39,265 bases of DNA from Candidatus Taylorbacteria bacterium RIFCSPHIGHO2_02_FULL_44_12 (GCA_001822575.1 MHRM01000001.1:24755-64019); one strand, 5' to 3'. Numbered from the stretch's first letter, positions 5,552 through 31,245 are shown. Program-made: numbers and translations. The notes: generated by a model from the sequence alone, not told the origin.

Positions 5552-6217
5552 ATGTCTATAAATACCCATGTCCTTTTGGCCTCAAAAGATATAAGACCAT
5601 ATGTAAAACAACTGAAATCAATTTCTGAATCTGCTGTTTTGTCTGTTAAAAAATTGTTACCAATCAATGATGTGGATGTAGTGTTCTACTATAACCCAGG
5701 AGCAACATTTAATGAGTCTGAGGTTGGTGGTATCGGAGGATTTACACCAAATGCTAGTGTTATATTTATTTCACTAAATCCTCGTCATCCAAATCTTGAG
5801 AGTTCATTAAAAAATGAGTTACTATTTATGTTGGCTCATGAATTTCATCATACCATTCGTTGGCAAAAACAAGTCGAGGGCGACACCTTATTGGAGGCTC
5901 TGGTATTTGAAGGCTTAGCAGATCATTTTGCTCAAGAAATAACTGGCAAAAAAACTCCATCGATATATTCCAACGCATTGACCCCTGAACAAAAGAAAAT
6001 TTTTCTTAAAAAGGCTTCAGGGGAATGGGAAAAGCCAACATACGATAACAATCTATGGTTCTTTGGTTCACAGCCAGATGTTGTTCCGCGCTGGACAGGG
6101 TATACATTGGGATATGATCTCGTTTCCGCATATTTACATACAAACCCTGGGACAAGTGCTTCAAAACTTGCATCTGCTGATGCATCTTTGTTTGCCAACA
6201 AATCAATTTATCAGTAG
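5552..6217 (+). CDS. DUF2268/YjaZ-like putative zinc metallopeptidase (candidate leader peptidase)
   Basis: HExxH motif in MLAHEFHHTIRW, then EGLADHFAQE and RWTGYTLGYDLVSAYL, matching the general pattern of the DUF2268 predicted Zn-protease family. ATG 5552 is preferred over TTG 5537. Confidence 0.6.
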   Translation: MSINTHVLLASKDIRPYVKQLKSISESAVLSVKKLLPINDVDVVFYYNPGATFNESEVGGIGGFTPNASVIFISLNPRHPNLESSLKNELLFMLAHEFHHTIRWQKQVEGDTLLEALVFEGLADHFAQEITGKKTPSIYSNALTPEQKKIFLKKASGEWEKPTYDNNLWFFGSQPDVVPRWTGYTLGYDLVSAYLHTNPGTSASKLASADASLFANKSIYQ

Positions 6218-7510: not shown

Positions 7511-9322
7511 ATGTCTATATTTTCAAAATTATTGGGGAAAAAATCTGAAGCACCAATAGTTTCCGTCTTACCCGAAGAAATATACCAAGCTGGGGTACTG
7601 GAACTCAAGGATGTCATCGCTCCATCTGCTCTCAAGGTTAGCCCCAAGGAGCTCAATCTCGGAGAAAAAATCGCTCGGACCTTATTTGTAATTTCTTATC
7701 CCAGATTTTTGGACGAAAGCTGGTTTGCTCCGATCATAAACCTAGACAAAGTATTCAATATATCCATATTTATTCACCCCGTTGACACCGCCAAGATACT
7801 GCGACATTTCCAGAAAAAAGTAGCCGAGGTTCAGGGACAGATTTCCAGAAGAGAAGACAAAGGCCTGGTGCGCGACCCGGCTCTGGATACAGCATACCAA
7901 GATCTGGAAGCCTTGCGCGATCAGCTGATGCAGGCCCAGGAACATCTCTTTGATGTCGGAGTATATATCACCCTCTTTGCCGAGACAGACAATGAATTAG
8001 ACAAACTAGAATCCGAGGTCAAATCCATTTTGGAATCAAAACTGGTATATGTAAAACCTGCCCTATTCCAGCAGGAACAAGGCTTCAAAAGCGTCATTCC
8101 CATTGCCGATGATCAGTTAGCTGTCCATTCCAAGCTCAATTCATCGCCACTCTCTAGTCTGTTCCCATTTGTTTCTTTTGATCTGACTTCGGACAAGGGC
8201 ATACTCTATGGGATCAATAGACACAATTCTTCATTGGTACTCTTTGACCGTTTCTCCTTGGAAAATTACAATTCCGTGACATTTGCGGTGGCTGGCGCCG
8301 GAAAATCCTACTTTACCAAGCTGGAAATTCTTCGTACCTTGATGTTTGATACAGAAGTGATCGTCATAGATCCTGAACGAGAATACGAATATATGGCCGA
8401 AGCCACGGGTGGAAAATATTTCAATATTTCCCTCAATTCCGAGCACCATATCAATCCCTTTGATCTACCGATACCGCGCGAAGATGAATCCGCTACTGAT
8501 GTTTTGCGCTCAAATATCATCAACTTGGTAGGATTATTCCGAATCATGTTGGGCGGCCTGACCCAGGAAGAAGACGCTATCATTGACCGGGCCATCACCG
8601 AGACATACGCTCTCAAAGACATTACAGCTGAGGCAGACTTCCGCAATGTAGAACCACCGCTTTTGTCAGACTTTGAATTGGTCCTGGCTGGAATGGAAGG
8701 AGCTGATTCTCTGGTCCAACGGATGTCAAAATACACCAAGGGTACATGGGCAGGCTTCATCAACCGCCCCTCAAATGTTGATATCAATAAAAAATTCGTG
8801 GTTTTTTCTCTTAGGGACATGGAAGACGAGCTCAAACCTGTGGCCATGTATATTGTTACTCACTATATCTGGAATGCTATCCGCAAAAACCTCAAGAAAC
8901 GCCTATTGGTCATAGATGAGGCATGGTGGATGATGAAATCCGAAGATACGGCTTCATTTCTATTCAGTTTGGCCAAACGTGGACGCAAATATTATCTGGG
9001 TCTATCCACTATCACTCAAGATGTGGATGACTTCTTGCGCTCGCCATACGGTTTGCCAATCGTTACCAACTCTTCTATTCAGATACTTCTGAAACAGTCA
9101 CCAGCTGTCATGGACAGCGTCCAAAAAACATTCAATCTGACCGATGAAGAGAAATACCTATTACTAGAATCAGATGTGGGAGAGGGGATGTTCTTCGTGG
9201 GCCTCAAGCATGTAGCTATAAAAATAGTGGCTTCCTACACCGAAGACCAAATCATCACCACCAATCCAGCTCAATTAGTCCAAATCCAGCAGGCAAAGAA
9301 AGATCTGGAGCAAGCCAGATAA
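7511..9322 (+). CDS. virB4: VirB4-family T4SS ATPase, C-terminal ATPase part
   Basis: Walker A is AVAGAGKSYFTK and Walker B is KRLLVIDEAWWMM. GRKYYLGLSTITQDVDDF is typical of the VirB4/TraC-type (DUF87 / AAA-like) domain. Confidence 0.85.
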   Translation: MSIFSKLLGKKSEAPIVSVLPEEIYQAGVLELKDVIAPSALKVSPKELNLGEKIARTLFVISYPRFLDESWFAPIINLDKVFNISIFIHPVDTAKILRHFQKKVAEVQGQISRREDKGLVRDPALDTAYQDLEALRDQLMQAQEHLFDVGVYITLFAETDNELDKLESEVKSILESKLVYVKPALFQQEQGFKSVIPIADDQLAVHSKLNSSPLSSLFPFVSFDLTSDKGILYGINRHNSSLVLFDRFSLENYNSVTFAVAGAGKSYFTKLEILRTLMFDTEVIVIDPEREYEYMAEATGGKYFNISLNSEHHINPFDLPIPREDESATDVLRSNIINLVGLFRIMLGGLTQEEDAIIDRAITETYALKDITAEADFRNVEPPLLSDFELVLAGMEGADSLVQRMSKYTKGTWAGFINRPSNVDINKKFVVFSLRDMEDELKPVAMYIVTHYIWNAIRKNLKKRLLVIDEAWWMMKSEDTASFLFSLAKRGRKYYLGLSTITQDVDDFLRSPYGLPIVTNSSIQILLKQSPAVMDSVQKTFNLTDEEKYLLLESDVGEGMFFVGLKHVAIKIVASYTEDQIITTNPAQLVQIQQAKKDLEQAR

Positions 9323-9333
9323 TTTTTTGCACA

Positions 9334-9445
9334 ATTGCGCCCTCTCGAGGACAACAGCTCTCCCTTCGTTTCGCTTCGCGAAAGTCGAGAGACTGTTCTC
9401 CCCTGCTTGTCCGCCGTAGCCTTGGCGAAGGTGGGCGGGCGCAAT
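9334..9445. other. GC-rich structured intergenic element (candidate ncRNA or regulatory structure)
   Basis: Outer 9-bp stem attgcgccc (9334-9342) pairs with gggcgcaat (9437-9445). Internal complement ctctcga (9342-9348) pairs with tcgagag (9385-9391). Palindrome ttcgcgaa at 9375-9382. Clearly GC-richer than the flanks. Confidence 0.4.
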
Positions 9446-9450
9446 GACAG

Positions 9451-9459
9451 TGTTATAAT
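9451..9459 (+). promoter_or_regulatory. extended -10 (TGTTATAAT) ending 6 nt upstream of ATG 9466 (leaderless-type arrangement)
   Basis: tgttataat followed by cgatgt then ATG. Confidence 0.45.
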
Positions 9460-9465
9460 CGATGT

Positions 9466-9978
9466 ATGCCACCACAAAAAAAGAAAATCGGAAAGATCAA
9501 ATGGTTACTGCTCTATTCTTTTACCGGCGTCGTGGATGTATTGCAATTTCTAGCGGATCTAACGGGGATCGGAATACTAGCCAGCGAGGCCGCCGAGCCA
9601 TTCATAGGAGGGATACTGATAGTCATGTTTGAATTGTTCGGAATATCTGTCATCACCAAACCCAAGAGATTGGTCTCTCTATTGTGTTTGGCAGGCGCCG
9701 ATGCCTTGACCGGTGGAATAGCGCCTTTCTGGATCGTTGATGTCTGGTATGTCCAAAGCGATGTCAAAAAAGAGGAGACGGAATACGAACAACAGACTCA
9801 ACAGGAAATGTTTATTCAATCGAGCATAGGAACGCCTGCGAATATAGACGGACAGCGCATTCCTCCAATAATCAACTCCACCAACAATCAACCCCTCAAT
9901 CAAAATGGTATCAGAATGCCTCGCAGAAACATCGCCCCATTACAATCTGCCATTCAAAAAACTGGAAATGCTCAGTAA
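9466..9978 (+). CDS. hypothetical multi-pass membrane protein (T4SS-like locus)
   Basis: Three predicted hydrophobic segments, then a Q/N/P-rich tail. No family recognised. Confidence 0.55.
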   Translation: MPPQKKKIGKIKWLLLYSFTGVVDVLQFLADLTGIGILASEAAEPFIGGILIVMFELFGISVITKPKRLVSLLCLAGADALTGGIAPFWIVDVWYVQSDVKKEETEYEQQTQQEMFIQSSIGTPANIDGQRIPPIINSTNNQPLNQNGIRMPRRNIAPLQSAIQKTGNAQ

Positions 9979-10010
9979 TAATATAGAGCCCAGCGAACAT
10001 TCTTTCATCT

Positions 10011-10119
10011 CTCCGCAATGTAGTTTGAGCCCCCGAGAATGGAAAACCCTCTAAAGCTTAATGAATATTGCTCGCACCGCTCCGCAAGGTCGCCCCGTCG
10101 AATGGAAAACCCTATAGAT
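10011..10119 (+). repeat. two imperfect direct repeat units upstream of gene 10160-11191
   Basis: Unit 1 is 10011-10056 and unit 2 is 10080-10119. Both start with ctccgcaa and contain the exact 14-mer gaatggaaaaccct (10037-10050 and 10100-10113, 63 nt apart). Confidence 0.6.
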
Positions 10120-10159
10120 AAGTGTGAACAAGTTCTTACTTCATGGTAAAATAAATTCA

Positions 10160-11191
10160 ATGAGATCGGCAATCAAACTCCTCTTTTTTGGCTTTATCGT
10201 ATTGTTTGCTGGCAATCTTTCTGTTCAGGCACAAATTCCTATTTCTGTCGGCGGCATAGAATTAACCGCTTCCGTTGATAATCCAATTCCAGAACAAATA
10301 GTTACCATTACTGCCAGAAGTTACAGCGTGGATATCAATACCGCCACTATCAGCTGGAGCGTGGGAGGGAAAGTCATATCCCAAGGCATAGGAGAAACCG
10401 TCGCAAAGGTAAAAGCCCCCGCACTGGGAACCGTTTTGAACGTAACCGTTTCCGCGGTATTGCCGGATGGCAATCGCCTGACCAAATCCATCTCCATAGG
10501 ATCTGGATCGGTAGATATGATCGTGGAAACAGATGGCCATGTCCCGGCATTTTTCCATGGCAAGGCCCCTGAAGGATATCAAAACAACATAAAGATAATA
10601 GCCATAGGACACATCGCGGATTCCCGTGGCGTCCAATACGATCCACAGACTCTGATATACCGCTGGAAAAAGAATAATCAGGCCATAGAGGATCAAAGCG
10701 GATATGGCAAACAATCCGTGGTGGTCGCCGGAGATATCGTTCCCAGAGCCTATGTCATATCGGTTACGGCAGAGACTCGCGACGGCAAAGCTCGAGCCGA
10801 AAGCAGTGTCTCTATATCTCCACAAGCCCCAGAAATAGTCTTTTACATTGACGATCCTCTCTACGGCCCAATGTTCAATGCGGCTGTGAATGAATCTATT
10901 CGAATCGGATCGGAAAGAGAAGTGAGCGTGCTGGCTTTGCCCTTCGGATTTAACAAACCAAAAGATTCTTCTGGTAATCTATCTTTTTCCTGGATGATCA
11001 ATAATGCCAGTCACCCAGAATTGGATTCCAGCCAGTCCATAGTCTTGCGCGCGCCGGATACTGGAGCTGGTTCTTCCGAGGTCCTGGTCAGCGTCCGCAA
11101 TATCCGCAATATCCTCCAGAGCGCCCAGTCTGGATTTGCTATTGTCTTTGGTCCTTCTGCCACCCAAAGCACTTCCGATCTAAATTTCTAA
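10160..11191 (+). CDS. secreted hypothetical protein
   Basis: Signal peptide MRSAIKLLFFGFIVLFAGNLSVQA starting at ATG 10160 (ORF track starts at GTG 10124). Beta-rich, Ig-like sequence style. No family recognised. Confidence 0.55.
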   Translation: MRSAIKLLFFGFIVLFAGNLSVQAQIPISVGGIELTASVDNPIPEQIVTITARSYSVDINTATISWSVGGKVISQGIGETVAKVKAPALGTVLNVTVSAVLPDGNRLTKSISIGSGSVDMIVETDGHVPAFFHGKAPEGYQNNIKIIAIGHIADSRGVQYDPQTLIYRWKKNNQAIEDQSGYGKQSVVVAGDIVPRAYVISVTAETRDGKARAESSVSISPQAPEIVFYIDDPLYGPMFNAAVNESIRIGSEREVSVLALPFGFNKPKDSSGNLSFSWMINNASHPELDSSQSIVLRAPDTGAGSSEVLVSVRNIRNILQSAQSGFAIVFGPSATQSTSDLNF

Positions 11192-11192
11192 T

Positions 11193-12383
11193 ATGAAATC
11201 ACTCATTTTATTGAGAGGAAACAAAAAAATCTTTATGGCTATGATTTTTTGCTTCATAGTGTTCTTGAATACCTTGAATGTTTCTAATCAACATTTCGTA
11301 TTCGCCCAGAACGCGAACAATACAACATACACTCTTTTGGAACCTCTTCCTTGTATACCGACAGAGACTAGCCCTTGCCCAGAGGGCCCGGGAGAATTAA
11401 AAACCGAAGTAAATCTCAATGAATATCTCATATATGCCATCAATTTGCTGATAGCCCTTTCGGCCGTGGCGGCAGTCTTCATGATCACTTGGGGGGGGTT
11501 CCAATACATGACAACGGATTCCTGGCAGAACAAAAAAGAAGGTTTGACCAAATTCAAAAACGCCATCTTCGGCCTTCTTCTAGTCCTTTGTTCATACATC
11601 ATACTGCGCACCGTCAATCCGAGGCTTGTAGAGATCCCAGCCACACTTGTGCCACCTCTAACGAATGTCAATCTCAAAGATTCAATAAGCCCTGATGATT
11701 TCTTTGATCAGATATCAGCAGAGGTACAAAGATTGAGTAACAATTTGGATGTTTCTATCATGGAAGAAAAGTTGAGACAAGCAAAAGGGGATGTAAAGTT
11801 AGAAAAACAAAATATTGATGATTTAAAAAAACAGTTGGATATATTATCAAAAGAGGGAATAAATGAAACTGATCCACGGGTACAAATAATAAAAACTTCT
11901 ATTGAAGTTGCAAATAATAATATAAAAGAAAAAGAGGCTAATGTTTTGGTAGAAGGGATTAAATTTACTAACAATGCCTCTATTGAGTTAGCCGCTCAAG
12001 GACTTGTTGGTAAAAAGGATTTTGAGGGGATCAACACTACTATAAATTACTACAAAAAAAGAATAGAGAATTCCGAAAATATAAAGATCTTCGAACTGGA
12101 AAAGCTCGGTAAGTACGAAAAATATTCCGTAGTAAATGATCAAGCTATTTATTCACAAACCATACTAGATTTGATGAGGAGCGATGCTATGGTCCAAAAC
12201 GCAGATTTTGGTTTCTTTTTCCCAAGCGGGACATATACATATAGAAGCCAGAAACCTCAAGCTTTGGCAGAGCTCAATACTGTGCCGAAACAAATAGAGT
12301 CCATAAAAGACCCGATATTGAAGCAAGAACTTCAGGATAGATTGAAAAACAGCATTGCATTGATTGAAGAAAAATTCAAATAG
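11193..12383 (+). CDS. T4SS-pilin-like (TrbC/VirB2-like) domain protein with long coiled-coil C-terminal extension
   Basis: Signal/TM segment, then two helices LLIALSAVAAVFMITWGGFQYMTT ... AIFGLLLVLCSYIILRTVNP typical of T4SS pilin domains. The C-terminal 230 aa are K/E-rich coiled coil. Confidence 0.5.
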   Translation: MKSLILLRGNKKIFMAMIFCFIVFLNTLNVSNQHFVFAQNANNTTYTLLEPLPCIPTETSPCPEGPGELKTEVNLNEYLIYAINLLIALSAVAAVFMITWGGFQYMTTDSWQNKKEGLTKFKNAIFGLLLVLCSYIILRTVNPRLVEIPATLVPPLTNVNLKDSISPDDFFDQISAEVQRLSNNLDVSIMEEKLRQAKGDVKLEKQNIDDLKKQLDILSKEGINETDPRVQIIKTSIEVANNNIKEKEANVLVEGIKFTNNASIELAAQGLVGKKDFEGINTTINYYKKRIENSENIKIFELEKLGKYEKYSVVNDQAIYSQTILDLMRSDAMVQNADFGFFFPSGTYTYRSQKPQALAELNTVPKQIESIKDPILKQELQDRLKNSIALIEEKFK

Positions 12384-12404: not shown

Positions 12405-13721
12405 ATGACCATTAAAGGAAAAACTATAATAATACTAATCGTGATTTTGCTCGGAAGCGCAATCTCTTATTGGTATTTTTTGTTGCGTTATTCTATGAAT
12501 ACAATCCCTATAAATACAGACACAGAAGAAACTGGGGGCTTCGCTCCTTTTGGCAGGACATCATCTGGTGGTAGACAAGGAACAAGTGGCGGAGAGAATG
12601 CCACAACAACAAATTATTCTGGCCAGAATGAACAGGTTAGACTGCCTGTTCTGCGGCTCTTGAGCGACACCCCCATCGGGGGGTATGGCGCTAGTACCAC
12701 GGCCAGCACCACGGTCATTCGCTGGATTGATCGCGGCAGAGGCAATACTTATGAAGCTCGTCAGGACTCCCTCAATATCAGAACATTATCAAACACCATA
12801 TTGCCAAGAGTCTATCAATCTTCCTGGAATAAAAATCTGACTGCCTTCATTGGGACGATTTTCCCGGACAATTCTGGAGATCCAAGTGTGGTTTACGCGG
12901 AACTTCAAGCCCACCCAATACCCAAACAACAGGCCACAACTACAGCCACTTCAACTCCGACTGCCCCAGCCAACAATTCCCTGGCCCCATTTGATCTCAA
13001 AGGCAAAAATCTTCCAGAAAAAACAATTGCTTATGCTGTTTCGCCAAAAAAAGATCGCCTATTCGTCTTTGTAGACGAGAACGGATCCGGAACAGGTTAT
13101 ATTTCAAACTTTAACGGCAGTTCCTTGAAAAAAATATTTTCTTCGCCATTGACCCAAGTCAATGTTGATTGGCCAGAAGAAAACACCATTGCCATCACCA
13201 CCAAAGGATCGTCCAATCAAAATGGATTTTTGTACTTCGTCAATCCTAATACTGGCATAATAAAAAAAATCCTTGGTCCCATCCGTGGATTGAGCACACG
13301 AGTCAGTCACGACGCTCGCTATGTTCTATATTCCACGGCTCTGATCTCCAAAAACAGCATCCGGGCTTTCATATACTCAATAACTTCCGCCAGCGAAACA
13401 GACGCTCTGATCCAAACATTGGCAGATAAATGCGCTTGGGGGCATTTCTATGCTTATACCGTCTATTGCGCGGCGCCATCATCTTTGATTCAAGCAGAAT
13501 ACCCTGATGACTGGTATAAGGGGACTGTTTCCTTCACAGACAAAATCTGGGCAGTAGATGCCAGAACTGGTGAAGTTAGTTTGGTTTCAGCTTTGGTTGA
13601 TCAGGCCGATCGCTTGATAGATGTTTTCAACATGGAAATCAGTGATAAAGACGAATATTTGCTCTTTATGAATAAAAAAGACCTATCATTCTGGTCACTG
13701 GATTTGGTGTCTAGTAAGTGA
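12405..13721 (+). CDS. membrane-anchored hypothetical protein, possibly beta-propeller-like
   Basis: N-terminal TM IIILIVILLGSAISYWYFLL, then a Gly/Thr-rich linker and a beta-rich body. No motif recognised. Confidence 0.55.
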   Translation: MTIKGKTIIILIVILLGSAISYWYFLLRYSMNTIPINTDTEETGGFAPFGRTSSGGRQGTSGGENATTTNYSGQNEQVRLPVLRLLSDTPIGGYGASTTASTTVIRWIDRGRGNTYEARQDSLNIRTLSNTILPRVYQSSWNKNLTAFIGTIFPDNSGDPSVVYAELQAHPIPKQQATTTATSTPTAPANNSLAPFDLKGKNLPEKTIAYAVSPKKDRLFVFVDENGSGTGYISNFNGSSLKKIFSSPLTQVNVDWPEENTIAITTKGSSNQNGFLYFVNPNTGIIKKILGPIRGLSTRVSHDARYVLYSTALISKNSIRAFIYSITSASETDALIQTLADKCAWGHFYAYTVYCAAPSSLIQAEYPDDWYKGTVSFTDKIWAVDARTGEVSLVSALVDQADRLIDVFNMEISDKDEYLLFMNKKDLSFWSLDLVSSK

Positions 13722-14521: not shown

Positions 14522-14863
14522 TCAAGTATACTTTAATATTCCTGTCTTCACAAAGAGACCATGGAGATCATCCGTCAGGGCTGGAATCAGCTCTTTTAAT
14601 CCTGACAATTTTCCAAAAACAACAACATTCATTCCTTGGAGGATTCGTGGATACAAAGGCCTCACTGCCTCATATATTCGCCTGCGCATCTTATTTCTAC
14701 TCACGGCTGTCTTAAATATTTTCTTGCTAGCCACGGCGGCTATCCTAGTATCGGAACAACTGCTGACAAATCTGACAGTAAAAAAAGTTGAATGAGCCAC
14801 TCTTCCTTTGCTCATTACAAACTCAAATTGAAAAGTATTCAGTCTTTGCGAGCGTGGGAGCAT
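14522..14863 (-). CDS. rnpA: ribonuclease P protein component
   Basis: 113 aa and basic, with KKIFKTAVSRNKMRRRIYEAVR. Classical rpmH-rnpA-yidC order. Confidence 0.85.
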   Translation of the reverse strand: MLPRSQRLNTFQFEFVMSKGRVAHSTFFTVRFVSSCSDTRIAAVASKKIFKTAVSRNKMRRRIYEAVRPLYPRILQGMNVVVFGKLSGLKELIPALTDDLHGLFVKTGILKYT

Positions 14864-14875
14864 TTTGGCTTTGAT

Positions 14876-14998
14876 GGACCAAACACCACTACATCACATA
14901 ACAAACTCATCTTAAGCCCAGTCGCTTGGCTGAAGAACTACATTTTGTGGTAGAGGCCGCTGGCAATGTTTGTTATGTGATGTAGTGGTGTTTGGTCC
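14876..14998 (-). repeat. long-hairpin element A: 31-bp perfect inverted repeat with 61-nt loop
   Basis: Left arm 14876-14906 (ggaccaaacaccactacatcacataacaaac) is the exact reverse complement of right arm 14968-14998. Read on the minus strand, the loop starts with attgccagcggcctc, which is shared with element B. Confidence 0.85.
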
Positions 14999-15007
14999 TT
15001 AAAAACA

Positions 15008-15142
15008 TCAAACAGCAATACGACGACGGCCTTTGGCGCGACGACGAGTCAAGCCTTTTCTTCCAGAGGCTGTTTTCATTCGGGCACGAAAGCCGTGGGT
15101 CCGAGCTCTCTTGCGTCTTTTGGGTTGGTAAGTTATGGACAT
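15008..15142 (-). CDS. rpmH: 50S ribosomal protein L34 (below the ORF-track size cutoff)
   Basis: My reverse-strand translation: [44 protein letters not shown], 44 aa plus stop. Confidence 0.9.
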
Positions 15143-15297
15143 GGTTTTACTATACAGGATATGGAACACAAATCAATATCAATGAGCTCGATTTTGGCAT
15201 ATCCACATCTTATCAACATATTTAAGCTTTTGGCACAAGTATGTACAATCAAAAACAAGTATATACTTAGAAAATAAATCCGAGGAATAGAAATTCA

Positions 15298-16650
15298 ATG
15301 AGTGATTATACAAAAATGTGGCAGACGGCCCTGGTGAAGATAGAATCTGACATATCACAAGCCAACTTTTCAACATGGTTCAAAGAAACCAGCATCGTTC
15401 GTGAAGAGGAGGGAGTCGTGTACTTGGGAGTGCCAAACTCTTTTACCCAGGAATGGCTTTACAAAAAATTCCACAACTCCATTTTGCGCGTTCTGCGGGC
15501 CTTGAATGAGGGAGTCCGTTCCCTTGAATATGTCATTATCACCAAAGACGGCAGTATCAAGGGGCTGGGACACGCCAAAAGAAAGGAAGTGGACCTACCG
15601 ACTATGTCTATGCCTCTCCATGATTTCTACATCAACAAAGAAGACAACCTCAATCCTCGCTACACTTTTGAAAATTTCGTCATCGGCCCATTCAACGAGC
15701 TTGCTCATGCCGCCTCACAAACCGTCATTCAGAAACCAGGCCAAACATACAATCCCTTGTTCGTATACGGTGGAACCGGTCGGGGCAAAACACATCTGAT
15801 CCAGGCTATTGGGAATAAAATAAAAAAAGATTTCGCCGACAAAAAAGTCTTTTATCTGACCTCGGAACGCTTCGGTTCCGAATATCTGGTCTCACTCCAA
15901 GAAAACAAAGCCCAACTATTCAAGGAAAAATATCGCCGTTTTGATGTCGTTATCATGGACGATGTTCAGTTTTTCTCAAAAAAAGAGAAATTCCAAGAAG
16001 AATTGTTTCATTTCTTCAATACATTCAAGGATACGGGCCGTCAGCTGGTATTTTCTTCAGACATGCACCCCAATATCATTCCAGAGCTAGAAGACCGTCT
16101 ACGAAGCCGTTTCAACACTGGTATGGTCGTTGATATACCAGAACCAGACCATGAATCGCGGATAGCCATCGTTAGGACAAAATGCTCCACCCACAACATC
16201 ACCTTGCCGAAAGATATTATAGAATTCTTGGCTGATGCCATAAAAGACAATATCCGCGAAATAGAAGGTGTGGTAAACATAGTTGCTTGTCAGACACAAC
16301 TCAAAAAAAGAGAGTTGAATATAAATGAAATCAAACAGATTCTCAAAAATTGCACCAAACCAAAAAAGGTCGTTTCAATCAAAGATGTGGTCAAAACCAT
16401 ATCGGAATATTATGGAGTTGATGAAGACAGTATATACAACAAAACCAGACGCAAGGAGGTTGTCAGACCTAGACAAGTGATCATGTATATCCTTCGTGAG
16501 GACTTCAATATATCCTTTCCAGCTATTGGCGAAAAAATAGGAGGGAGAGACCACACCACGGTTATTCATTCATACGAAAAAATCCGAGGAGAGGTCAAAA
16601 ATGATCTTTTGTTGTCGCAGGAGATCAGTCAACTTCGTTCTATGTTATAA
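15298..16650 (+). CDS. dnaA: chromosomal replication initiator DnaA
   Basis: Walker A is GGTGRGKTHL. Also VIMDDVQFF, and the C-terminal DNA-binding helix IGGRDHTTVIHSYEKI. Confidence 0.95.
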   Translation: MSDYTKMWQTALVKIESDISQANFSTWFKETSIVREEEGVVYLGVPNSFTQEWLYKKFHNSILRVLRALNEGVRSLEYVIITKDGSIKGLGHAKRKEVDLPTMSMPLHDFYINKEDNLNPRYTFENFVIGPFNELAHAASQTVIQKPGQTYNPLFVYGGTGRGKTHLIQAIGNKIKKDFADKKVFYLTSERFGSEYLVSLQENKAQLFKEKYRRFDVVIMDDVQFFSKKEKFQEELFHFFNTFKDTGRQLVFSSDMHPNIIPELEDRLRSRFNTGMVVDIPEPDHESRIAIVRTKCSTHNITLPKDIIEFLADAIKDNIREIEGVVNIVACQTQLKKRELNINEIKQILKNCTKPKKVVSIKDVVKTISEYYGVDEDSIYNKTRRKEVVRPRQVIMYILREDFNISFPAIGEKIGGRDHTTVIHSYEKIRGEVKNDLLLSQEISQLRSML

Positions 16651-16876
16651 ATATAGATAATGATGTGTATAAGTATGGAATTGTTGGTGGATAAAATCGT
16701 TTATTTTTAATCTAAGAAAAACTTCTTCATCCATTATGGTTGTTGGTTATATGTTTATCCGAAAATAAAAAGTCATAAAACACTTTATATATAAAGTAAA
16801 AATAGCTTTTCAACATATCCACAGTCCTAATAATAATAAGTGAAAAATTAAAAAATAATTACTACTATAAAATACC
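16651..16876. promoter_or_regulatory. putative oriC (dnaA-dnaN spacer with DnaA-box-like sites and an AT-rich tract)
   Basis: Three 8/9 matches (16664-16672 tgtgtataa, 16686-16694 ggtggataa, 16815-16823 atatccaca) and one 7/9 match (16755-16763 ttatccgaa) to TTATCCACA. Very AT-rich run at 16824-16870. Two more boxes lie upstream of dnaA (15199-15207 atatccaca, 15210-15218 ttatcaaca). Confidence 0.6.
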
Positions 16877-17983
16877 ATGAAACTAGAGATAAGTTCACAA
16901 AAACTGAAAGAAATTATACATCTTGTTGAGAGGCTTGCCGGAAAACAAACCACTCTCCCCGTTCTTTCTTGCATATTGATAAATGTTAAGAATGGCAATG
17001 TTGTTTTGAAAACAACCAACCTGGATATAGGTATTGAAATATCATTACCGGTAAAATCAGAAAAAGATGGGGTTATAGCCGTGCCAGCGAGGACATTTTC
17101 ATCTTTTATTTCACAAATTCCAGAACAAAATCAAATAATTTACATGGAAGAGATTTCTGGGAATTTGAAGATATCATCATCTCATTCAAAAGGAGTCATA
17201 AAAACCGTTCCCAATGAAGATTTCCCGACTATTCCAAGAGTTTTGGATGGCCAAAATTGTGTTGTTCAGAGCAAGTTATTCTCCAAAGGGTTATCCAGTG
17301 TTTCTTATAGCGCCTCTATTTCTGGGGTCAAACCAGAACTTTCCAGTGTTTATGTTTACAAAAACAACGAAGATTTGGTATTTGTTGCCACAGATTCATT
17401 TCGTTTGGCAGAAAAAATCATCAAAATAAATACCCCAACATCATTTGGAGATATGATGATACCGTTGAATAATGTCTTGAATATAACCAAGATTTTGGAA
17501 TCAATGAGTGAGAAAGTTTCAGTAACATCCAACAAAAATCTCATTTCTTTTGAGTCTGGGGGAATATATCTTGTGTCCAGGCTAATTGACGGGGTTTTCC
17601 CGGATTATCGCCAAATCGTACCCAAAGAATTCATAACAGAAGCAGTTGTTCTAAAACAAGATTTGATAAATGCTCTAAAAGTCGCCAATATATTTTCCGA
17701 CAAATTCAATCAAGTGCGATTTATCATCAAACCAACAGCCAAAACATTTGAAATATTCACAAAAAACAGTGATGTGGGGGAAAATCAAACATCATTACCG
17801 GCTTCTTTGTCCGGCGAACCAGCCGAAATAAATTTTAACCATAAATATATGACTGACTGTTTCCAGTCTGTTGAATCTGACAGTGTCTCTTTGCGCGTTT
17901 CTGGAAACAATCGCCCAATGATCATTAGACCGGTTTCCGGGGATCAGACTTTCATGTACCTAGTTATGCCTATGAATCGTTGA
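16877..17983 (+). CDS. dnaN: DNA polymerase III beta sliding clamp
   Basis: 368 aa immediately after dnaA. Typical three-domain clamp sequence ending in MYLVMPMNR. Confidence 0.95.
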   Translation: MKLEISSQKLKEIIHLVERLAGKQTTLPVLSCILINVKNGNVVLKTTNLDIGIEISLPVKSEKDGVIAVPARTFSSFISQIPEQNQIIYMEEISGNLKISSSHSKGVIKTVPNEDFPTIPRVLDGQNCVVQSKLFSKGLSSVSYSASISGVKPELSSVYVYKNNEDLVFVATDSFRLAEKIIKINTPTSFGDMMIPLNNVLNITKILESMSEKVSVTSNKNLISFESGGIYLVSRLIDGVFPDYRQIVPKEFITEAVVLKQDLINALKVANIFSDKFNQVRFIIKPTAKTFEIFTKNSDVGENQTSLPASLSGEPAEINFNHKYMTDCFQSVESDSVSLRVSGNNRPMIIRPVSGDQTFMYLVMPMNR

Positions 17984-18282
17984 TGGTGGGGCTTGTACGA
18001 TCCACAGACACATTTGAATATATGATAGGTATAGGACAATTTTTAAAAAAAATAATAAACACTCGATCTGGTGAATGGTTGATCCGTTCAAAGGTTAGGA
18101 AAGCAATAAACAAAGAGATTTTTTTGGATATACCGGAAAAAGATATTTATTTTTCACATTCAACGATTGTTTTGAAAAATGTTCCCCAAGCGGCCAGATC
18201 TGAATTGTTTATCAAAAAATCCAACCTTTTGAGGGACATAAATGCTTCGCAAAAAGTTAAGATTTTTACAGATTTTCGCTAA
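17980..18282 (+). CDS. small hypothetical protein, possibly DUF721/DciA-like
   Basis: 100 aa, overlapping the dnaN stop by 4 nt. Position after dnaN and the pattern HSTIVLKNVPQAARSELFIKKSNLLRDIN loosely resemble DUF721 proteins. Weak call. Confidence 0.35.
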   Translation: MMVGLVRSTDTFEYMIGIGQFLKKIINTRSGEWLIRSKVRKAINKEIFLDIPEKDIYFSHSTIVLKNVPQAARSELFIKKSNLLRDINASQKVKIFTDFR

Positions 18283-20822
18283 GGGGAGACTTTGAAATTA
18301 ATACTAGCTTGGCCCTTATTCCAAACACTATCATATACAACAACCGACAAGGTATTTGAATCTGATGATAATTCGGCCACATCTCCTGGTATAAATGAAA
18401 TATTGAGGGGATCTTTTTCAGAAGTTAGTATATATTTGCCATTGATGTAAAGCTCTGTTTTTTGGGGAGTATATGGCCCGACAATTTTGAGCTGGACAGT
18501 TGTGACTCTTTGGGTAGACAGGACAGCATTTGCTTCGGGAAATATTATACTGATTTGGGGAGATTTTTCCGGAGTATGAATATCATCAAATTCAGTTGGT
18601 AAAACAATATTGTTATTTTCCTTGAATTCTGGGTGAGAAGGCTGCCAGGTTTCGCTAAACCATTTACGAACGCCGTATTCCCAGGATTCGTATTGAGGAT
18701 CTTGTTTTGGATCGGTTGTTGTTGGGCCTCTTGGCTCGTCTTTGTTGAGCCAATGAAGAATATCATGAACATCATTCAGGACTATTTCTTCCTGGGTTTC
18801 TGGGGGCGTGTACTCGGTTGCCAATTTGCCGGAGATTTTGTCTTTTTTGTAAGAAATTCCGCCGTACCAGATGCCACGCAAAACAGGCTTATTGTCGGTT
18901 AGAGGTGGCGGGGAGGCTCTAAAACTTTCCACAGGGGTGTCTTTGACAGCTTGGGACATGAATGCTCCCCATACTGGGGCAATTACCAACCCAGCTATAT
19001 CATGCTGAAGCGGTTCATTGTCATTGTTACCGGCCCAGGCTCCCACAGCCAGGCCCGGAGTATAACCAATAGCCCAAACATCACGGAAATCATCCGTAGT
19101 ACCGGTTTTCATGGCCACTGGTCTGCCTACAGTCTCAATGATTGAGCGATAACCCGGTAGTTGAGCTTTTGGGTCGGACAATATGTCAGATATTTGGCGG
19201 GCAATCTCTGGGGCCAATACGCGATATGGGTGAATTGATGATTCTTCCAGAACTATCCCCTCGGCATTTTCAACCTTGAGAACAGAACGATATGGATTGC
19301 GCACGCCATCATTGGCGAATACACCGTAGGCACTGGTCATTTCTAGCAGAGAAACTTCACCGCCACCCAAAACAAGCGACAATCCATATCTGGAGGGAGT
19401 GGTTAAGGAAGTGATTCCGAGATCCTCGGCCGTTTGGATAGAACCGTTCAGACCAGCCATATAGAGGGCTTTGACGGCTGGAATGTTGCGCGACCTAGCT
19501 AGGGCTTGGCGTATGGTCAGAGGACCCTGAAATTTTTTGTCATAATCCAGAGGAAAATAGCAAACTTTTTCCGGATCGTCTGATGGATTTTTTGGTTTGC
19601 CTTCTTTGTCGCATTGGAGGGAAAACTCGGTGGGAGTGTCAAAAAGGATTGTTTCCGGCGTATAGCCTTTTTTGAACAAGGTGGCGTAGACAAAAGGCTT
19701 GAATGTTGATCCAGGCTGGCGTTTGGCAATGGCAATGTTGTAATTGCCGTCTATGGACGAGTCAAAATAGTCTTTGGAACCAACCATGGCCAAAATATCT
19801 CCAGTTTTTGGATCTATAGCGACCATGGCGGTATTGCTGGCATTGAAATTGCTTTGGAGTGTCGGGGCGAATTTTGAAATAATTTCTTCAGCCTTTTCTT
19901 GGAGATCAAAATCCAGGCTGGTAATGACACGCAAACCACCACTCAATACCACTTGCTCGCCATATTTTTGGGCCAGATAATCTCGGACAAACATCACGAA
20001 ATGAGGAGCTCTTATGCCGGAAAGATTCTTGGCTAGAAATTGAACATGTTCATCCGCGGCCGAGTCGTACTGGACATCTGAAATCAGCCCTAAGCTTTTC
20101 ATTCGTTGAAGTACTAATTTTTGTCTTCCATCCAGATCTTCGCGGTGAGTGCCATAAGGAGAATAATATGTTGGAGCTTGTGGAATGGCCGCCAGATAGG
20201 CGGCTTGGGCCAGAGTGACTTCTTTGGCCGACCGGCCAAAAAAAGTCTGGCTTGCTTCTTCTACGCCGTATATAGTTCCCCCATAAGATGTCTCATTGAG
20301 ATATGCTTCCAATATCTTGTCCTTGCTCATGCTTTTTGTCAGTTTGATCGCCAGGACCCACTCTTTGATCTTGCGAGTCAGAGTTTTATCCTTAGTTAGA
20401 AGGCTGTTCTTTACCACTTGCTGGGTGATGGTGGAAGCTCCTTGGCTGAACCCGCCCGAAGCGATATCAAAAAACACAGCCCTTATGATGGACAAAGGTT
20501 CAATGCCTATATTGGTGTAAAAATTGTTATCCTCTATGGCTATGGTTGCTTGACTTATAAGAGGTGATATTTCCGAAAGTGGAATATCGGTCCGTTTGGA
20601 GTTTATGCCTGTATCATACAAAAGAACAGTGCCGGTTCGGTCATATATTTTTGTTGACCTGGATATATGTCTAGCTTCCAGAGAATCCAAATCAGGCATC
20701 TTCAGATTGCCAACCCACAAAGCCCCGAGTCCCACCAAGACAAAAATCCCAGAAAATCCCAGGAATGAATATATTTTTAGATGCCGTAATAACTTTTTAT
20801 TTCTACGCCTTTTGCCAGTCAT
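18279..20822 (-). CDS. class A penicillin-binding protein (glycosyltransferase + transpeptidase) with C-terminal extension
   Basis: GT51 motifs EDNNFY, GASTITQQ, RKIKE. Transpeptidase motifs STFKP, SRN, KTGTT. Start at Met45 of the ORF (20822) is preferred because TATAAT lies 7 nt upstream and the upstream gene ends at 20839. Confidence 0.9.
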   Translation of the reverse strand: MTGKRRRNKKLLRHLKIYSFLGFSGIFVLVGLGALWVGNLKMPDLDSLEARHISRSTKIYDRTGTVLLYDTGINSKRTDIPLSEISPLISQATIAIEDNNFYTNIGIEPLSIIRAVFFDIASGGFSQGASTITQQVVKNSLLTKDKTLTRKIKEWVLAIKLTKSMSKDKILEAYLNETSYGGTIYGVEEASQTFFGRSAKEVTLAQAAYLAAIPQAPTYYSPYGTHREDLDGRQKLVLQRMKSLGLISDVQYDSAADEHVQFLAKNLSGIRAPHFVMFVRDYLAQKYGEQVVLSGGLRVITSLDFDLQEKAEEIISKFAPTLQSNFNASNTAMVAIDPKTGDILAMVGSKDYFDSSIDGNYNIAIAKRQPGSTFKPFVYATLFKKGYTPETILFDTPTEFSLQCDKEGKPKNPSDDPEKVCYFPLDYDKKFQGPLTIRQALARSRNIPAVKALYMAGLNGSIQTAEDLGITSLTTPSRYGLSLVLGGGEVSLLEMTSAYGVFANDGVRNPYRSVLKVENAEGIVLEESSIHPYRVLAPEIARQISDILSDPKAQLPGYRSIIETVGRPVAMKTGTTDDFRDVWAIGYTPGLAVGAWAGNNDNEPLQHDIAGLVIAPVWGAFMSQAVKDTPVESFRASPPPLTDNKPVLRGIWYGGISYKKDKISGKLATEYTPPETQEEIVLNDVHDILHWLNKDEPRGPTTTDPKQDPQYESWEYGVRKWFSETWQPSHPEFKENNNIVLPTEFDDIHTPEKSPQISIIFPEANAVLSTQRVTTVQLKIVGPYTPQKTELYINGKYILTSEKDPLNISFIPGDVAELSSDSNTLSVVVYDSVWNKGQASINFKVSP

Positions 20823-21664: not shown

Positions 21665-22675
21665 TTAAAGCAATTTTGCGCTGCCTTTTTGGCCCATATG
21701 GACAAAAGCTTTGTCTGTGGCGATCCGGCCCCGTGGAGTCCTCTCCAATAGTCCCAAACGGATCAGATATGGTTCATAGACTTCTTCTATGGTGGATTGT
21801 TCTTCGGAGAGGGCGGCCGCTATGGTATTGAGGCCGACAGGACCGCCGCCGAACTTTGTGATGATGGTTTTGAGGATATCGCGGTCGGCAGAAGTCAAGC
21901 CGACATTGTCTACACCGAGGAGAACTAGGGCTTTTTCTACAATATCGTGTGTCAAATCAGTTTTGTTGATCTGGGCATAGTCGCGACAGCGCTTTAAGTG
22001 GTAGTTGGCTGTGCGAGGAGTGAAACGCGAACGCATGGCTACTTCGGCAACTGCCGCCGGATGGATATCAATATTAAGGATCTTGGCTGATCGGCGGACG
22101 ATCTCGGCGATTTCGTCGTTAGAGTAAAATTCTAGCTTGAAGACCCCTCCGGAAAAACGCGAGCGCAGGGGAGCGGATATCATAGCGATCCTAGTGGTGG
22201 CGGCTATCAAAGTAAATGGTGGAAGATCTAGCTGAATAGTCCTGGCTGAAGGGCCTTTGCCAATAATAATGTCCAAAGTGCCAGATTCCATGGCGGGGTA
22301 GAGAACTTCCTCAATAGCTTTATTCAAGCGATGGATTTCATCTATAAAAAGGATGTCTCCAGATGAGAGGTTGGTTAGAACCGAGGCCAGATCGCCAACC
22401 TTCAATATAGCTGGCCCAGAAGTAACTTTTATTTGGGTATTAGTCTCTTTGGCGACTAGATAAGCCAAGGTTGTTTTTCCAAGCCCCGGTGGGCCATAAA
22501 AGAGGATGTGTTCGGGGGGATGTTGGCGTTCTTTGGCGGCGGTCAAGAGGATGTGAAGATTATCTTTGATGTTTTTTTGTCCGATATAATCTTCCCAACG
22601 AGAAGGACGAAGAGTCTGATCCAGAAAACCAGTCTCTTTGTCATCGGTATTGGTGTGAGGTATAGGATTTGACAT
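21665..22675 (-). CDS. ruvB: Holliday junction branch migration ATPase RuvB
   Basis: Walker A is GPPGLGKTTLA. Also ILFIDEIHRL, ATTRIAMISAPLRSRF and TPRTANYHLKRCRD. Confidence 0.95.
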   Translation of the reverse strand: MSNPIPHTNTDDKETGFLDQTLRPSRWEDYIGQKNIKDNLHILLTAAKERQHPPEHILFYGPPGLGKTTLAYLVAKETNTQIKVTSGPAILKVGDLASVLTNLSSGDILFIDEIHRLNKAIEEVLYPAMESGTLDIIIGKGPSARTIQLDLPPFTLIAATTRIAMISAPLRSRFSGGVFKLEFYSNDEIAEIVRRSAKILNIDIHPAAVAEVAMRSRFTPRTANYHLKRCRDYAQINKTDLTHDIVEKALVLLGVDNVGLTSADRDILKTIITKFGGGPVGLNTIAAALSEEQSTIEEVYEPYLIRLGLLERTPRGRIATDKAFVHMGQKGSAKLL

Positions 22676-22757
22676 TTATTTTTATTTATGATAGCATATT
22701 GCTCCGATCAAGGTTTGTTTTTCAAAATATACAAAATATAATTTTCGCTATTCTGAA

Positions 22758-22907
22758 CGCCTAAACCTCTAAGCAATGGCCTTCCCAGGTTTGGGCGTAG
22801 GCTCTGGGACATTTTGGTCATGCGCTTGCGCATGGACTGAAATTATCCTTGAGCCTCCGCCTCGCCCGAGGCATCATGCCTCGGGATATTGCTTAGAGGT
22901 TTAGGCG
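22758..22907. repeat. 150-nt element C: 20-bp perfect terminal inverted repeat enclosing GC-rich sub-hairpins
   Basis: cgcctaaacctctaagcaat (22758-22777) is the exact reverse complement of 22888-22907. Internal hairpins are cccgaggca tca tgcctcggg and catgcg cttg cgcatg. No ORF. Confidence 0.8.
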
Positions 22908-22989
22908 CTTAGCTTTTCATTGGCAACTCTATTTGTATCCTACTCTCATCAGGCTCAAAAAAGCAATTGGTATAGTTGGGGATTGTTAT

Positions 22990-23307
22990 TTATCTCGGTT
23001 TTGGTACTGAATTTTGGATAGATGTGTGAATGCGAGTCAGTTCAAGGTGATGTTTTTGCTGTTCTTGCTCGAGTTTTCTGATTTCATTGTGCAATATGGG
23101 AGCCTGGCGCTCATCTTCTCGTAATTTGGTCTTTTTTTCTTCTATTTGTCTTTGCAATTCCGCTATAGCTTTTTTCAATTCGGATATTTCTTTTTGTGTT
23201 TCCTGTTCTTTTGTATTTTTGGCTTGCAGTTCTTGAATTTCCTTATTCAATTCTTGCTCGGTCTTCTTCAATGTCTCATTAAGATTTTGTAGGTTGTTTG
23301 GGATCAT
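22990..23307 (-). CDS. coiled-coil hypothetical protein
   Basis: 105 aa, K/E/Q-rich heptad-like sequence, downstream of the PilB-like gene. Confidence 0.5.
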   Translation of the reverse strand: MIPNNLQNLNETLKKTEQELNKEIQELQAKNTKEQETQKEISELKKAIAELQRQIEEKKTKLREDERQAPILHNEIRKLEQEQQKHHLELTRIHTSIQNSVPKPR

Positions 23308-26714: not shown

Positions 26715-26749
26715 CCGCTTGAGCGCGAGATACTCAAGCGGTCTTTTTT
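26715..26749. terminator. bidirectional intrinsic terminator
   Basis: ccgcttgag (26715-26723) pairs with ctcaagcgg (26733-26741), followed by tctttttta. The right arm overlaps the hepT stop codon. Confidence 0.55.
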
Positions 26750-27177
26750 ATGTACGAATCAATTTGAATCATGTATGTCTTAAAATCAGAAAAGTGATTT
26801 TTGAGATTCCTTAGAAACATTTCCTTATCTAGTTTTTCATATCTGTGAACAAGCATGTTTCGAGCGCCAACGATCGGGGCTATTCTTTTGGCGAATTCAT
26901 TTTCAAGCACCTTGCATTCTCCGAGAGCCACAAAAGTACTTTGCAGGTCGTCTGGAGCTCCAAGCTTGCCCTCTCGCAGTATGTGAATATTGATGTCAAT
27001 CATAAGGTCAACCGCAAGCTGAAAATATCTTTCAATGGCCGGTAATTTCAAATCATCCTTTATGAGTTTGTTTATTTCTGAACCAGAAACATAATACTCA
27101 AGTTTTTTGACATTCTCGGCAAGCAATTGTATTTTTTTTGTTATGAAATCTGCGTCAAGCATTTTTGTATTCTTCAA
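26734..27177 (-). CDS. hepT: HEPN-domain toxin (HepT/DUF86-like) of a HEPN-MNT module
   Basis: R-x4-H HEPN motif in GARNMLVHRYEKLD. 147 aa. Overlaps the upstream MNT gene by 23 nt. Confidence 0.8.
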   Translation of the reverse strand: MKNTKMLDADFITKKIQLLAENVKKLEYYVSGSEINKLIKDDLKLPAIERYFQLAVDLMIDINIHILREGKLGAPDDLQSTFVALGECKVLENEFAKRIAPIVGARNMLVHRYEKLDKEMFLRNLKNHFSDFKTYMIQIDSYIKKTA

Positions 27178-27571
27178 TTATATTGGAAACATAATGTGAT
27201 CTCAAATCAAAGAGAGGACGAGCTTCGTCGTATAAGCGCAGCGCGGAAATAAAAAAAGTATCAAAAAGATGTCTTTCTTTCTCATACAAAACAATAGCAT
27301 GTTCAACGATCTTCTTTCCAAGAAGCGGTGACACATTTTTTAGATTGACAAGCTGTATGGCGTTATGTTTGAAGATTTCAATTAGTTCATTATTTATTTT
27401 GATCTCTTCCTCAAGATTAATCTTCTTTCCAGAAGAAAGATAAGCAATATCATAATCACTTTCCTTGTGAGTTTTGCCGGTAACTTGTGAACCAAAAAGA
27501 ACAACAAGGGCCAAATCATACTTTAAAGCCAGTTTTTTTATTGGACCTTTTTTAGAAATCACATTTATCAT
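27155..27571 (-). CDS. mntA: minimal nucleotidyltransferase (MntA-like antitoxin)
   Basis: The GS-x9-DxD style motif is LFGSQVTGKTHKESDYDIAYL. Confidence 0.8.
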   Translation of the reverse strand: MINVISKKGPIKKLALKYDLALVVLFGSQVTGKTHKESDYDIAYLSSGKKINLEEEIKINNELIEIFKHNAIQLVNLKNVSPLLGKKIVEHAIVLYEKERHLFDTFFISALRLYDEARPLFDLRSHYVSNIIEEYKNA

Positions 27572-28139: not shown

Positions 28140-28175
28140 CAGCCGCTTCTCCACAGGGGGATGCGGCTGTTTTTT
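28140..28175 (+). terminator. intrinsic terminator
   Basis: cagccgc (28140-28146) pairs with gcggctg (28163-28169), followed by T6 (28170-28175). It lies 20 nt after stop 28120. Confidence 0.55.
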
Positions 28176-28180
28176 ATTAA

Positions 28181-28221
28181 GGTTTCAGCATAGCGAGGCC
28201 TCGCCTCGCTATGCTGAAACC
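28181..28221. repeat. 18-bp perfect hairpin (element E)
   Basis: ggtttcagcatagcgagg (28181-28198), loop cctcg, then cctcgctatgctgaaacc (28204-28221). It sits directly after a separate terminator. Confidence 0.8.
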
Positions 28222-28240
28222 TAGCTGATATCATTGGTCC

Positions 28241-31114: not shown

Positions 31115-31245
31115 GAGCTTGGTGAGAACAACATCTCATCACAAAGACATTGCCAGCGGCCTCAAACCAAAAGAGTTGGCCTTTAGTGATACACCCATAA
31201 ATCACCACATAGTCTTTGTGATGAGATGTTGTTCTCACCAAGCTC
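31115..31245 (+). repeat. long-hairpin element B: 34-bp perfect inverted repeat with 63-nt loop
   Basis: Left arm 31115-31148 (gagcttggtgagaacaacatctcatcacaaagac) is the exact reverse complement of right arm 31212-31245. The loop starts with attgccagcggcctc. It begins 3 nt after the polA stop. Confidence 0.85.

Follow-up and report, generated by a model that had tools for sequence, protein, structure and literature searches.

Two related hairpin elements in operon junctions

How does a long, perfectly paired inverted repeat come to fill the junction between rpmH and rnpA, and is it kept perfect as RNA or as DNA? The repeat lies in a 39,265-nucleotide stretch of Candidatus Taylorbacteria bacterium RIFCSPHIGHO2_02_FULL_44_12, here called the window, which also holds a second, related element. 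A preliminary description of this DNA argued that the pair is not due to chance, and pointed to either an RNA-level structure or a hairpin-templated mobile element.

Read in the direction of its flanking genes (minus strand), the first element, e1, consists of a 5' arm at 14968-14998 (GGACCAAACACCACTACATCACATAACAAAC), a 61-nt loop at 14907-14967 and a 3' arm at 14876-14906. On recomputation the arms were complementary at 31/31 positions, exactly as first described, and the inverted repeat could be extended to 37 nt at 95%. The second element, e2, lies on the plus strand, with a 5' arm at 31115-31148, a 63-nt loop at 31149-31211 and a 3' arm at 31212-31245 that pairs with the first at 34/34 positions. 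Each element is about 125-135 bp in size. In gene direction both loops open with the same 15 nt, ATTGCCAGCGGCCTC (14953-14967, minus strand; 31149-31163, plus strand). This shared 15-mer had been noticed before; the identity at the arm-loop junction in fact amounts to 17 nt, ACATTGCCAGCGGCCTC, because it takes in the last two bases of the arm. In e1 the 17-mer occupies 14953-14969 and reads GAGGCCGCTGGCAATGT on the plus strand, that is, GAGG, 9 nt and ATG. No third match to the loop-start 15-mer was present in the window with up to 3 mismatches allowed.

The homologous core of the two copies comprises the inner arm, the 17-mer and about 20 nt of loop. It was located at 14930-14986 in e1 (minus strand) by blastn, nhmmer and covariance-model (CM) searches, and at 31128-31186 in e2 (plus strand) by blastn against e1; the blastn alignment covers 59 nt at 74.6% identity (E 1.7e-6). 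Locally aligned, the inner ~18 bp of the 5' arm match at 15/18 positions, which 2 of 5000 shuffles reached, and the ~22 nt of loop past the 17-mer show a weak similarity, reached by 406 of 5000. In the outer ~12 bp of the stems and the 3' part of the loop (21 nt in e1), the two copies are unrelated. With e1 as its sole input, a covariance model recovered e2 (E 1.4e-15), and did so only in matching orientation. The predicted folding energies are -67.5 kcal/mol for e1 and -72 kcal/mol for e2, with z-scores of -12 and -13 against shuffled sequences, and the fold is predicted to be equally good on both strands.

The fold z-scores, the blastn E-value and the arm shuffles bear out the claim that this is a related pair. 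As to an assembly artefact, hairpins do break assemblies here: N-gaps and contig ends fall inside e1, including in one dnaA-linked scaffold. However, the identical sequence was recovered in more than 20 independent contigs (from ENA, JGI, NCBI and Logan) and in the Logan unitigs of eight metagenome runs, so e1 and e2 are real DNA, and we give chance similarity or artefact next to no weight. Among these contigs is NCBI MHRW01000007.1 of GCA_001821095.1, from Rifle-aquifer groundwater, which carries the window sequence at 90674-129938. One ENA contig (L005, ERZ4903125) differs in the 5' arm of e1 by one A-to-C change that the partner arm does not compensate (ACAAAC to ACCAAC); this represents a rare allele or else an error of assembly.

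In the unitigs of the eight runs we saw no empty-site allele, flipped loop, variant or branching inside the loops. Since the loops do not branch there, these communities hold no identical sibling of e1 or e2. Likewise, no run contained e1 without its host genome; e1 occurred only where the host occurs. In the three deepest runs (X2, X6 and X7), unitig depth over the e1 loop (14877-14997) was 1.32-1.34x that of its flanks, while the e2 loop stood at 0.71-0.95x. The higher depth may reflect extra copies of e1 in part of the community, or a coverage bias.

Gene context and orientation

Both elements sit between co-directional genes and are oriented like them. On the minus strand, e1 separates rpmH (ribosomal protein L34; 15008-15142, Pfam PF00468, E 2.8e-18) from rnpA (14522-14863, PF00825); yidC lies on the same strand, and dnaA diverges on the other. 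A site scan placed a promoter-like site upstream of rpmH at 15176-15149 (minus strand). On the plus strand, e2 separates polA (28734-31112, Pfam scan) from a holA-like gene for the DNA polymerase III delta subunit (31276-32040), assigned by Pfam scan and by synteny in relatives. The e1 stem begins 9 nt after the rpmH stop and ends 12 nt before the rnpA ATG, the same spacing as the 10 and 13 nt first reported to within one base of counting convention. The e2 stem begins 2 nt after the polA stop and lies 30 nt before the holA ATG.

No -35/-10 hexamers and no T-tract after the stem were found within 14876-14998 or 31115-31245. An insert that carries a promoter or an intrinsic terminator was thus ruled out for both copies. 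An intrinsic-terminator-like hairpin does occur elsewhere in the window, at 28141-28222 (CAGCCGC...GCGGCTG with a T-run); a perfect hairpin of 20 bp, with a loop of 3 nt (28180-28222), comes directly after it, 18 nt before tsaE.

The cumulative GC-skew minimum falls in the rpmH / dnaA / dnaN region, at about 15000-18000, so the window spans the probable replication origin. The rpmH-dnaA spacer is some 150-300 nt away from e1. The two elements lie on opposite sides of dnaA and the skew minimum, and consequently share their orientation relative to the replication fork as well, with the sense strand on the lagging-strand template. The preliminary description took the common orientation relative to transcription, together with the compensated stems, as a sign of an RNA-level structure or a hairpin-templated mobile element rather than chance. 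Co-orientation was confirmed for 2/2 copies, but with n=2 it is confounded with replication orientation: because the two orientations coincide, they cannot separate an RNA-level from a single-stranded-DNA-level function.

The shared fork orientation bears on the possibility that e1 and e2 are single-stranded-DNA recombination or nicking sites of an attC-, REPIN- or oriT-like kind, in which a hairpin on the lagging-strand template would present the 17-mer to a tyrosine recombinase or HUH enzyme. Variable arms, a conserved structure and a strand-specific conserved motif beside the stem would fit such a site, and so would the missing target-site duplication described below. Against it, the flanks are syntenic housekeeping genes rather than cassettes, two copies only are known, and the domain searches found no transposase, integrase, reverse transcriptase, relaxase, RAYT/Y1 or HUH gene encoded in the window. 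We consider this reading very unlikely.

Two systems of this type were compared directly. Integron attC sites resemble e1 and e2 as strand-specific hairpins between co-oriented genes, with variable arms and a conserved architecture. Their stems, however, are imperfect and carry extrahelical bases and R''/R' sites, and they flank cassettes near intI. Reading the sequence of e1 and e2, we found neither the R'' (RYYYAAC) and R' (GTTRRRY) core sites nor extrahelical bases, and with no integrase domain in the window an attC site was ruled out. REPINs are doublets of REP sequences that form hairpins, are mobilised by RAYT transposases and are thought to move as single-stranded hairpins. They share with e1 and e2 an intergenic hairpin unit of about 100 nt and the lack of a target-site duplication. 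But REPIN arms consist of a conserved REP motif, and a genome with a RAYT gene has tens to hundreds of such copies, whereas here the arms differ between two copies and the window has no Y1 transposase; as far as the window shows, a REPIN/RAYT system is not supported.

Orthologous junctions in relatives

CPR/Patescibacteria genomes are tiny and tightly packed. The relatives compared were two for rpmH-rnpA (L233 and L234) and seven syntenic ones, collected through PolA homologues, for polA-holA. They are distant, with about 70% identity in PolA and about 50% in RnpA, and those closest in PolA (~70% identity) carry the label Paceibacterota or Candidatus Taylorbacteria. From the rpmH stop to the rnpA ATG there is 1 nt in L233 and 4 nt in L234, in line with the earlier statement that this junction is normally short and tightly coupled. 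The polA-holA spacers measure 1, 1, 1, 2 and 31 nt, and 113 nt in a relative designated L244. Orthologous spacers held no element in 2/2 relatives at rpmH-rnpA and in 6/7 at polA-holA. Empty rpmH-rnpA spacers in close relatives, together with transcripts that show no stable or processed species, were an outcome that the preliminary description had named as speaking against its proposal. Searches of 190-234 kb of relatives with nhmmer and with the e1 covariance model, a scan of the kind that it had called for, recovered no family member beyond e1 and e2. Because the relatives' spacers are short and the family is absent from them, the ancestral junctions must have been tight, and e1 and e2 are lineage-specific insertions.

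The long spacer of L244 (ENA ERZ19030051, scaffold_275; PolA 68% identical) is filled by a perfect hairpin of its own, unrelated to e1 and e2. It lies at 12428-12528, with 22-bp arms made of GATTTAA heptads around a 57-nt loop; the polA stop is 9 nt before it and the holA ATG 3 nt after it. A sister hairpin in the same scaffold (6077-6164, 23-bp arms of GATTTAA heptads, 42-nt loop, ~70% alike) stands 6 kb from the junction copy, upstream of ruvB and beside a conserved non-coding RNA (ncRNA) described below. The polA-holA junction has thus been hit independently in a related lineage. Two further relatives contain lineage-specific hairpin insertions that occupy nearly the whole of their spacers. 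One, in L243 at 18620-18746, starts 10 nt after rpsT; its arms are 17 bp long, and its interior of 93 nt is internally palindromic. The other, in L246 at 21682-21866, has 19-bp arms and a 147-nt interior, and lies between convergent amidase and Mur-ligase genes. Perfect foldback insertions of unrelated sequence have thus been gained repeatedly in this group, in the few spacers that permit them.

These data bear on the reading that e1 and e2 are cis-acting RNA hairpins under selection. Such a hairpin could serve intercistronic processing or stability, as an RNase III site or as 3' protection of the rpmH and polA mRNAs, or it could juxtapose stop and start codons and so couple termination to reinitiation at rnpA and holA; selection on the transcript would keep the stem. 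Several features agree with this. Both copies occupy co-directional operon junctions in gene orientation, the stems start within 2-9 nt of the upstream stop, that of e1 ends close to the downstream start, and the unrelated L244 hairpin is placed in the same way, so that two lineages have independently acquired a perfect hairpin at polA-holA. The predicted fold is very stable, and transcription must run through both elements, which contain neither a promoter nor a terminator. Against this, the element is absent at the orthologous sites of all relatives examined, and what is conserved is the sequence of the arm-loop junction rather than the geometry of the stem. Selection on RNA also tolerates G-U pairs and one-sided changes, and the stems show neither (0 G-U in 65 bp; 0 one-sided changes in 31 aligned pairs), an argument of low power with n=2 sequences. 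We regard a selected RNA hairpin as unlikely, and a conserved cis-regulatory RNA is not supported.

Nor did the elements match a known RNA class. Rfam was searched, as had been suggested, both at the gathering threshold and in E-value mode; it returned no family for e1 or e2, only sub-threshold matches to miRNA precursors, which arise because any long hairpin attracts them. A search for RNA-seq runs that contain this genome returned none. With empty orthologous spacers, no Rfam family and neither G-U pairs nor one-sided changes, the RNA-level half of the initial proposal is not supported. The insertion of both copies, and the double-sided changes and mirrored indel in their arms, agree better with its other half, a hairpin-templated or mobile element.

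A conserved RNA candidate in the same window

The window offers an internal contrast. A GC-rich structured RNA candidate of ~160 nt, the third long inverted repeat in the window, lies at 22745-22920 on the minus strand, between the ORF 22990-23307 and ruvB. It has a 25-bp closing stem and an interior of ~110 nt, with co-directional genes on either side. Six relatives carry it in the corresponding position, upstream of ruvB, at 75-78% identity (E 1e-21 to 1e-26). Its alifold consensus structure is multi-branched, with 54 predicted pairs, 19 of them with compensatory changes. The structure also includes several invariant G-U pairs, from which the RNA strand can be assigned as the minus strand. 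Rfam had no match to it. The candidate is probably an undescribed Paceibacteria ncRNA, unrelated to e1 and e2, and is arguably the more valuable RNA finding of the window.

The likeness to e1 and e2 extends to the long closing stem, the interior and the setting between co-directional genes. In contrast to this candidate, e1 and e2 lack orthologous conservation, covariation and invariant G-U pairs. An RNA in the same window that does display G-U pairs and covariation speaks further against the selected-hairpin reading.

Double-sided changes in the arms

In a structure-guided alignment of e1 with e2 over 31 pairs, 17 were identical and 14 were changed on both sides; none was changed on one side only and none was broken. 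Ten of the 14 double-sided changes fall in the unrelated outer 12 pairs and four in the inner 19. Several are transversions, for example A-U to C-G or C-G to G-C, and transversion pair changes cannot proceed by way of a G-U intermediate. Across the two stems, 65/65 pairs are Watson-Crick, without a single G-U. In addition, a 2-nt indel beside the loop is mirrored in both arms. The preliminary description held that the differences between the copies are compensated on the partner arm. This was confirmed insofar as each stem is perfect and all 14 changes are double-sided, but as an argument it holds only for the inner ~18 bp, the outer ~12 bp being unrelated sequence.

Watson-Crick pairing throughout, exclusively double-sided changes and the mirrored indel together argue for maintenance of the arms at the DNA level. 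On the sequences at hand, the pattern is best explained by copying of one arm from the other, rather than by base-by-base compensation in RNA. Template switching during replication is known to create and repair perfect stems, with multi-base compensatory changes in a single event (PMC8794818; see also PMC8604942 and PMC13100816). The arms of e1 and e2 would be a clean natural example of stems kept at the DNA level and not by RNA selection, and their pattern is a caution for covariation-based RNA discovery.

Template switching might also account for the elements as a whole. Here the ~58-nt core would have arrived by some other route, and each hairpin would have formed in situ, without transposition, when the second arm, including the locus-specific outer 12 bp, was copied from the first. 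The mechanism is documented (PMC8794818; Monttinen and Loytynoja 2022), and its hairpins have the same perfect stems, double-sided multi-base changes, mirrored indels and stems that run into unrelated sequence. It suits the observations that only the core is homologous although the stems are perfect through their unrelated outer part, and that no target-site duplication is seen. The unrelated perfect hairpins of the relatives (L243, two in L244, L246) and of the window itself (28180-28222) suggest a lineage-wide tendency to form palindromes. But template switching copies nearby sequence only. It covers the upkeep of the arms, and not the arrival of ~125 nt in a 1-4 nt spacer. With ancestral spacers that short, ~90 nt of new DNA would be needed first. 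A core shared by loci 16 kb apart would still require a duplicative or mobile step. As a full account, we think in-situ formation quite unlikely.

Copies, flanks and a junction variant

In all, two diverged copies in 39 kb and one junction variant were counted. Searches with blastn against plasmids and phages found no relative of either element. A 15-mer scan of viral contigs returned 101 stretches, all chance matches and none with a flanking stem. In genome contigs, a 17-mer scan returned at least 114 stretches; among the matches listed, all were chance matches in GC-rich genomes, without stems. A gapped-pattern scan of metagenome contigs gave 6 chance matches, in a collection that lacks even the window's own copies. 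There was no consistent target-site duplication: none occurs at e1, and the 5-nt ATGAG that flanks e2, offset by 1 nt, is within chance given the six elements inspected.

Read antisense to the host genes, the conserved 17-mer becomes GAGGCCGCTGGCA-ATG-T, in which 9 nt separate a Shine-Dalgarno-like GAGG from an ATG. In this direction each element consists of an inverted repeat of 31-34 bp, a leader of ~57 nt, the GAGG-N9-ATG motif and then, at once, the other repeat. Up to the ATG, this is how the left end of an insertion sequence is laid out. The ATG opens only tiny ORFs in e1 and e2 (MFVM* and MSL*). These are not conserved, and a reading as leader peptides was dropped.

The junction variant, L009 (JGI 3300025311, Ga0209343_10390719), is 100% identical to the window over 734 nt, a stretch that takes in rnpA, the 3' arm and the loop. 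It departs from the window sequence at the arm-loop junction, and beyond lies unrelated DNA (L009 1-182). This DNA holds an open frame of at least 63 codons, which starts exactly at the ATG that belongs to the conserved motif. Among the six frames it has the highest score, with a log-likelihood ratio of 0.42 against 16 +/- 7 for real genes, and stop-free stretches as long occur in 5.7% of non-coding frames. It has no protein homologue or family, and its sequence is absent from the protein collection. L009 may come from a strain variant that carries the IS-like parent at this site, or it may be a chimera that involves a third member of the family, or a rearrangement at the hairpin. The open frame hints at an IS-like parent of e1 and e2; in a full-length copy the ORF would begin MFGTKDVSINRLKAV. 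If the two elements are deletion derivatives of such a parent, the deletion predates their divergence, because both share the ATG-to-repeat junction. Should this lead prove real, it would point to a new IS family without detectable homologues.

A candidate foldback insertion family

Taken together, we favour the reading that e1 and e2 belong to a small, lineage-restricted family of MITE or foldback insertions, probably descended from an IS-like element, that are passively co-transcribed and whose arms are homogenised by templating at the DNA level. We put its probability at about 0.5. Both elements have terminal inverted repeats (31/31 and 34/34 bp) around a short non-coding element, and both are insertions relative to empty orthologous sites, as expected of such a family, although a target-site duplication of fixed length is missing. 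Further points against it are that the outer repeat ends show no relationship between the copies, although transposons usually conserve these ends best, while the arm-loop junction is the most conserved part; that only two copies were seen; and that the window has no transposase, the L009 frame is weak and its contig is possibly chimeric.

On the foldback reading, each element would be a piece of foreign DNA of ~125-135 bp that landed in a once tight operon junction of a Paceibacteria (CPR) genome of the Rifle aquifer, and both would probably descend from an IS-like parent by internal deletion. Since neither element contains a promoter or terminator, we infer that they are passively co-transcribed with rpmH-rnpA and polA-holA. 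The resulting RNA hairpin, of about -70 kcal/mol, would bring the stop codon of the gene before it and the start codon of the gene after it together at the foot of a single helix, a juxtaposition that probably makes insertions in essential operons tolerable. Once co-transcribed, the hairpin would be a likely substrate of RNase III. Judging by the substitution pattern, the arms would be kept perfect, despite ~30% divergence between the copies, by template switching (quasi-palindrome correction) or by intramolecular gene conversion. Long perfect foldback insertions can thus occupy the junctions of translationally coupled essential genes (rpmH-rnpA, polA-holA). As no more than a passive MITE, the pair would be an ordinary finding. 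To our knowledge, very little is known about the mobile DNA of CPR/Patescibacteria.

Bacterial MITEs that are co-transcribed in operons include the Correia elements of Neisseria, the enterobacterial ERIC/IRU elements and the streptococcal RUP and BOX elements. Correia RNA hairpins are substrates of RNase III, and Correia elements duplicate TA. With the Correia, ERIC, RUP and BOX elements, e1 and e2 share a size of 100-160 bp, long terminal repeats that form one hairpin, a place in short operon spacers, absence from orthologous sites and likely co-transcription. Unlike them, they lack a target-site duplication and are so far very few, and they combine unconserved outer ends with a conserved junction and with arms that are perfect despite ~30% divergence.

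What is unusual here is the conserved arm-loop junction next to unrelated repeat ends, the missing target-site duplication and the recurrent targeting of polA-holA. One further reading would address such features: an undescribed hairpin-templated mobile DNA of CPR, in which one arm, the junction and the loop are inherited or moved, the second arm is re-synthesised by fold-back or template-switch copying, and the 17-mer is the recognition or nick site of an enzyme. Such a mechanism would account for arms that are perfect although the copies have diverged, for the mirrored indel, for locus-specific stem ends and for the lack of a target-site duplication. We hold it to be a long shot, very improbable indeed.

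Other features of the window

Several genes of the window deserve mention in their own right. To the left of the origin, at 7511-12383, a plus-strand cluster head-on to replication encodes a TraG/VirB4-like P-loop ATPase and a protein with a T4SS-pilin domain. On the minus strand at 26734-27571, the gene for a HepT-like RNase adjoins that for an MNT-type nucleotidyltransferase, a HepT/MNT toxin-antitoxin pair. Finally, 3092-5302 encodes a 736-aa YcaO-nitroreductase fusion, preceded by small ORFs without a Pfam match at 1956-2369 and 2493-2894; together these look like an azoline/RiPP-type cluster, and a DUF2268 Zn-protease gene lies downstream of the fusion gene.
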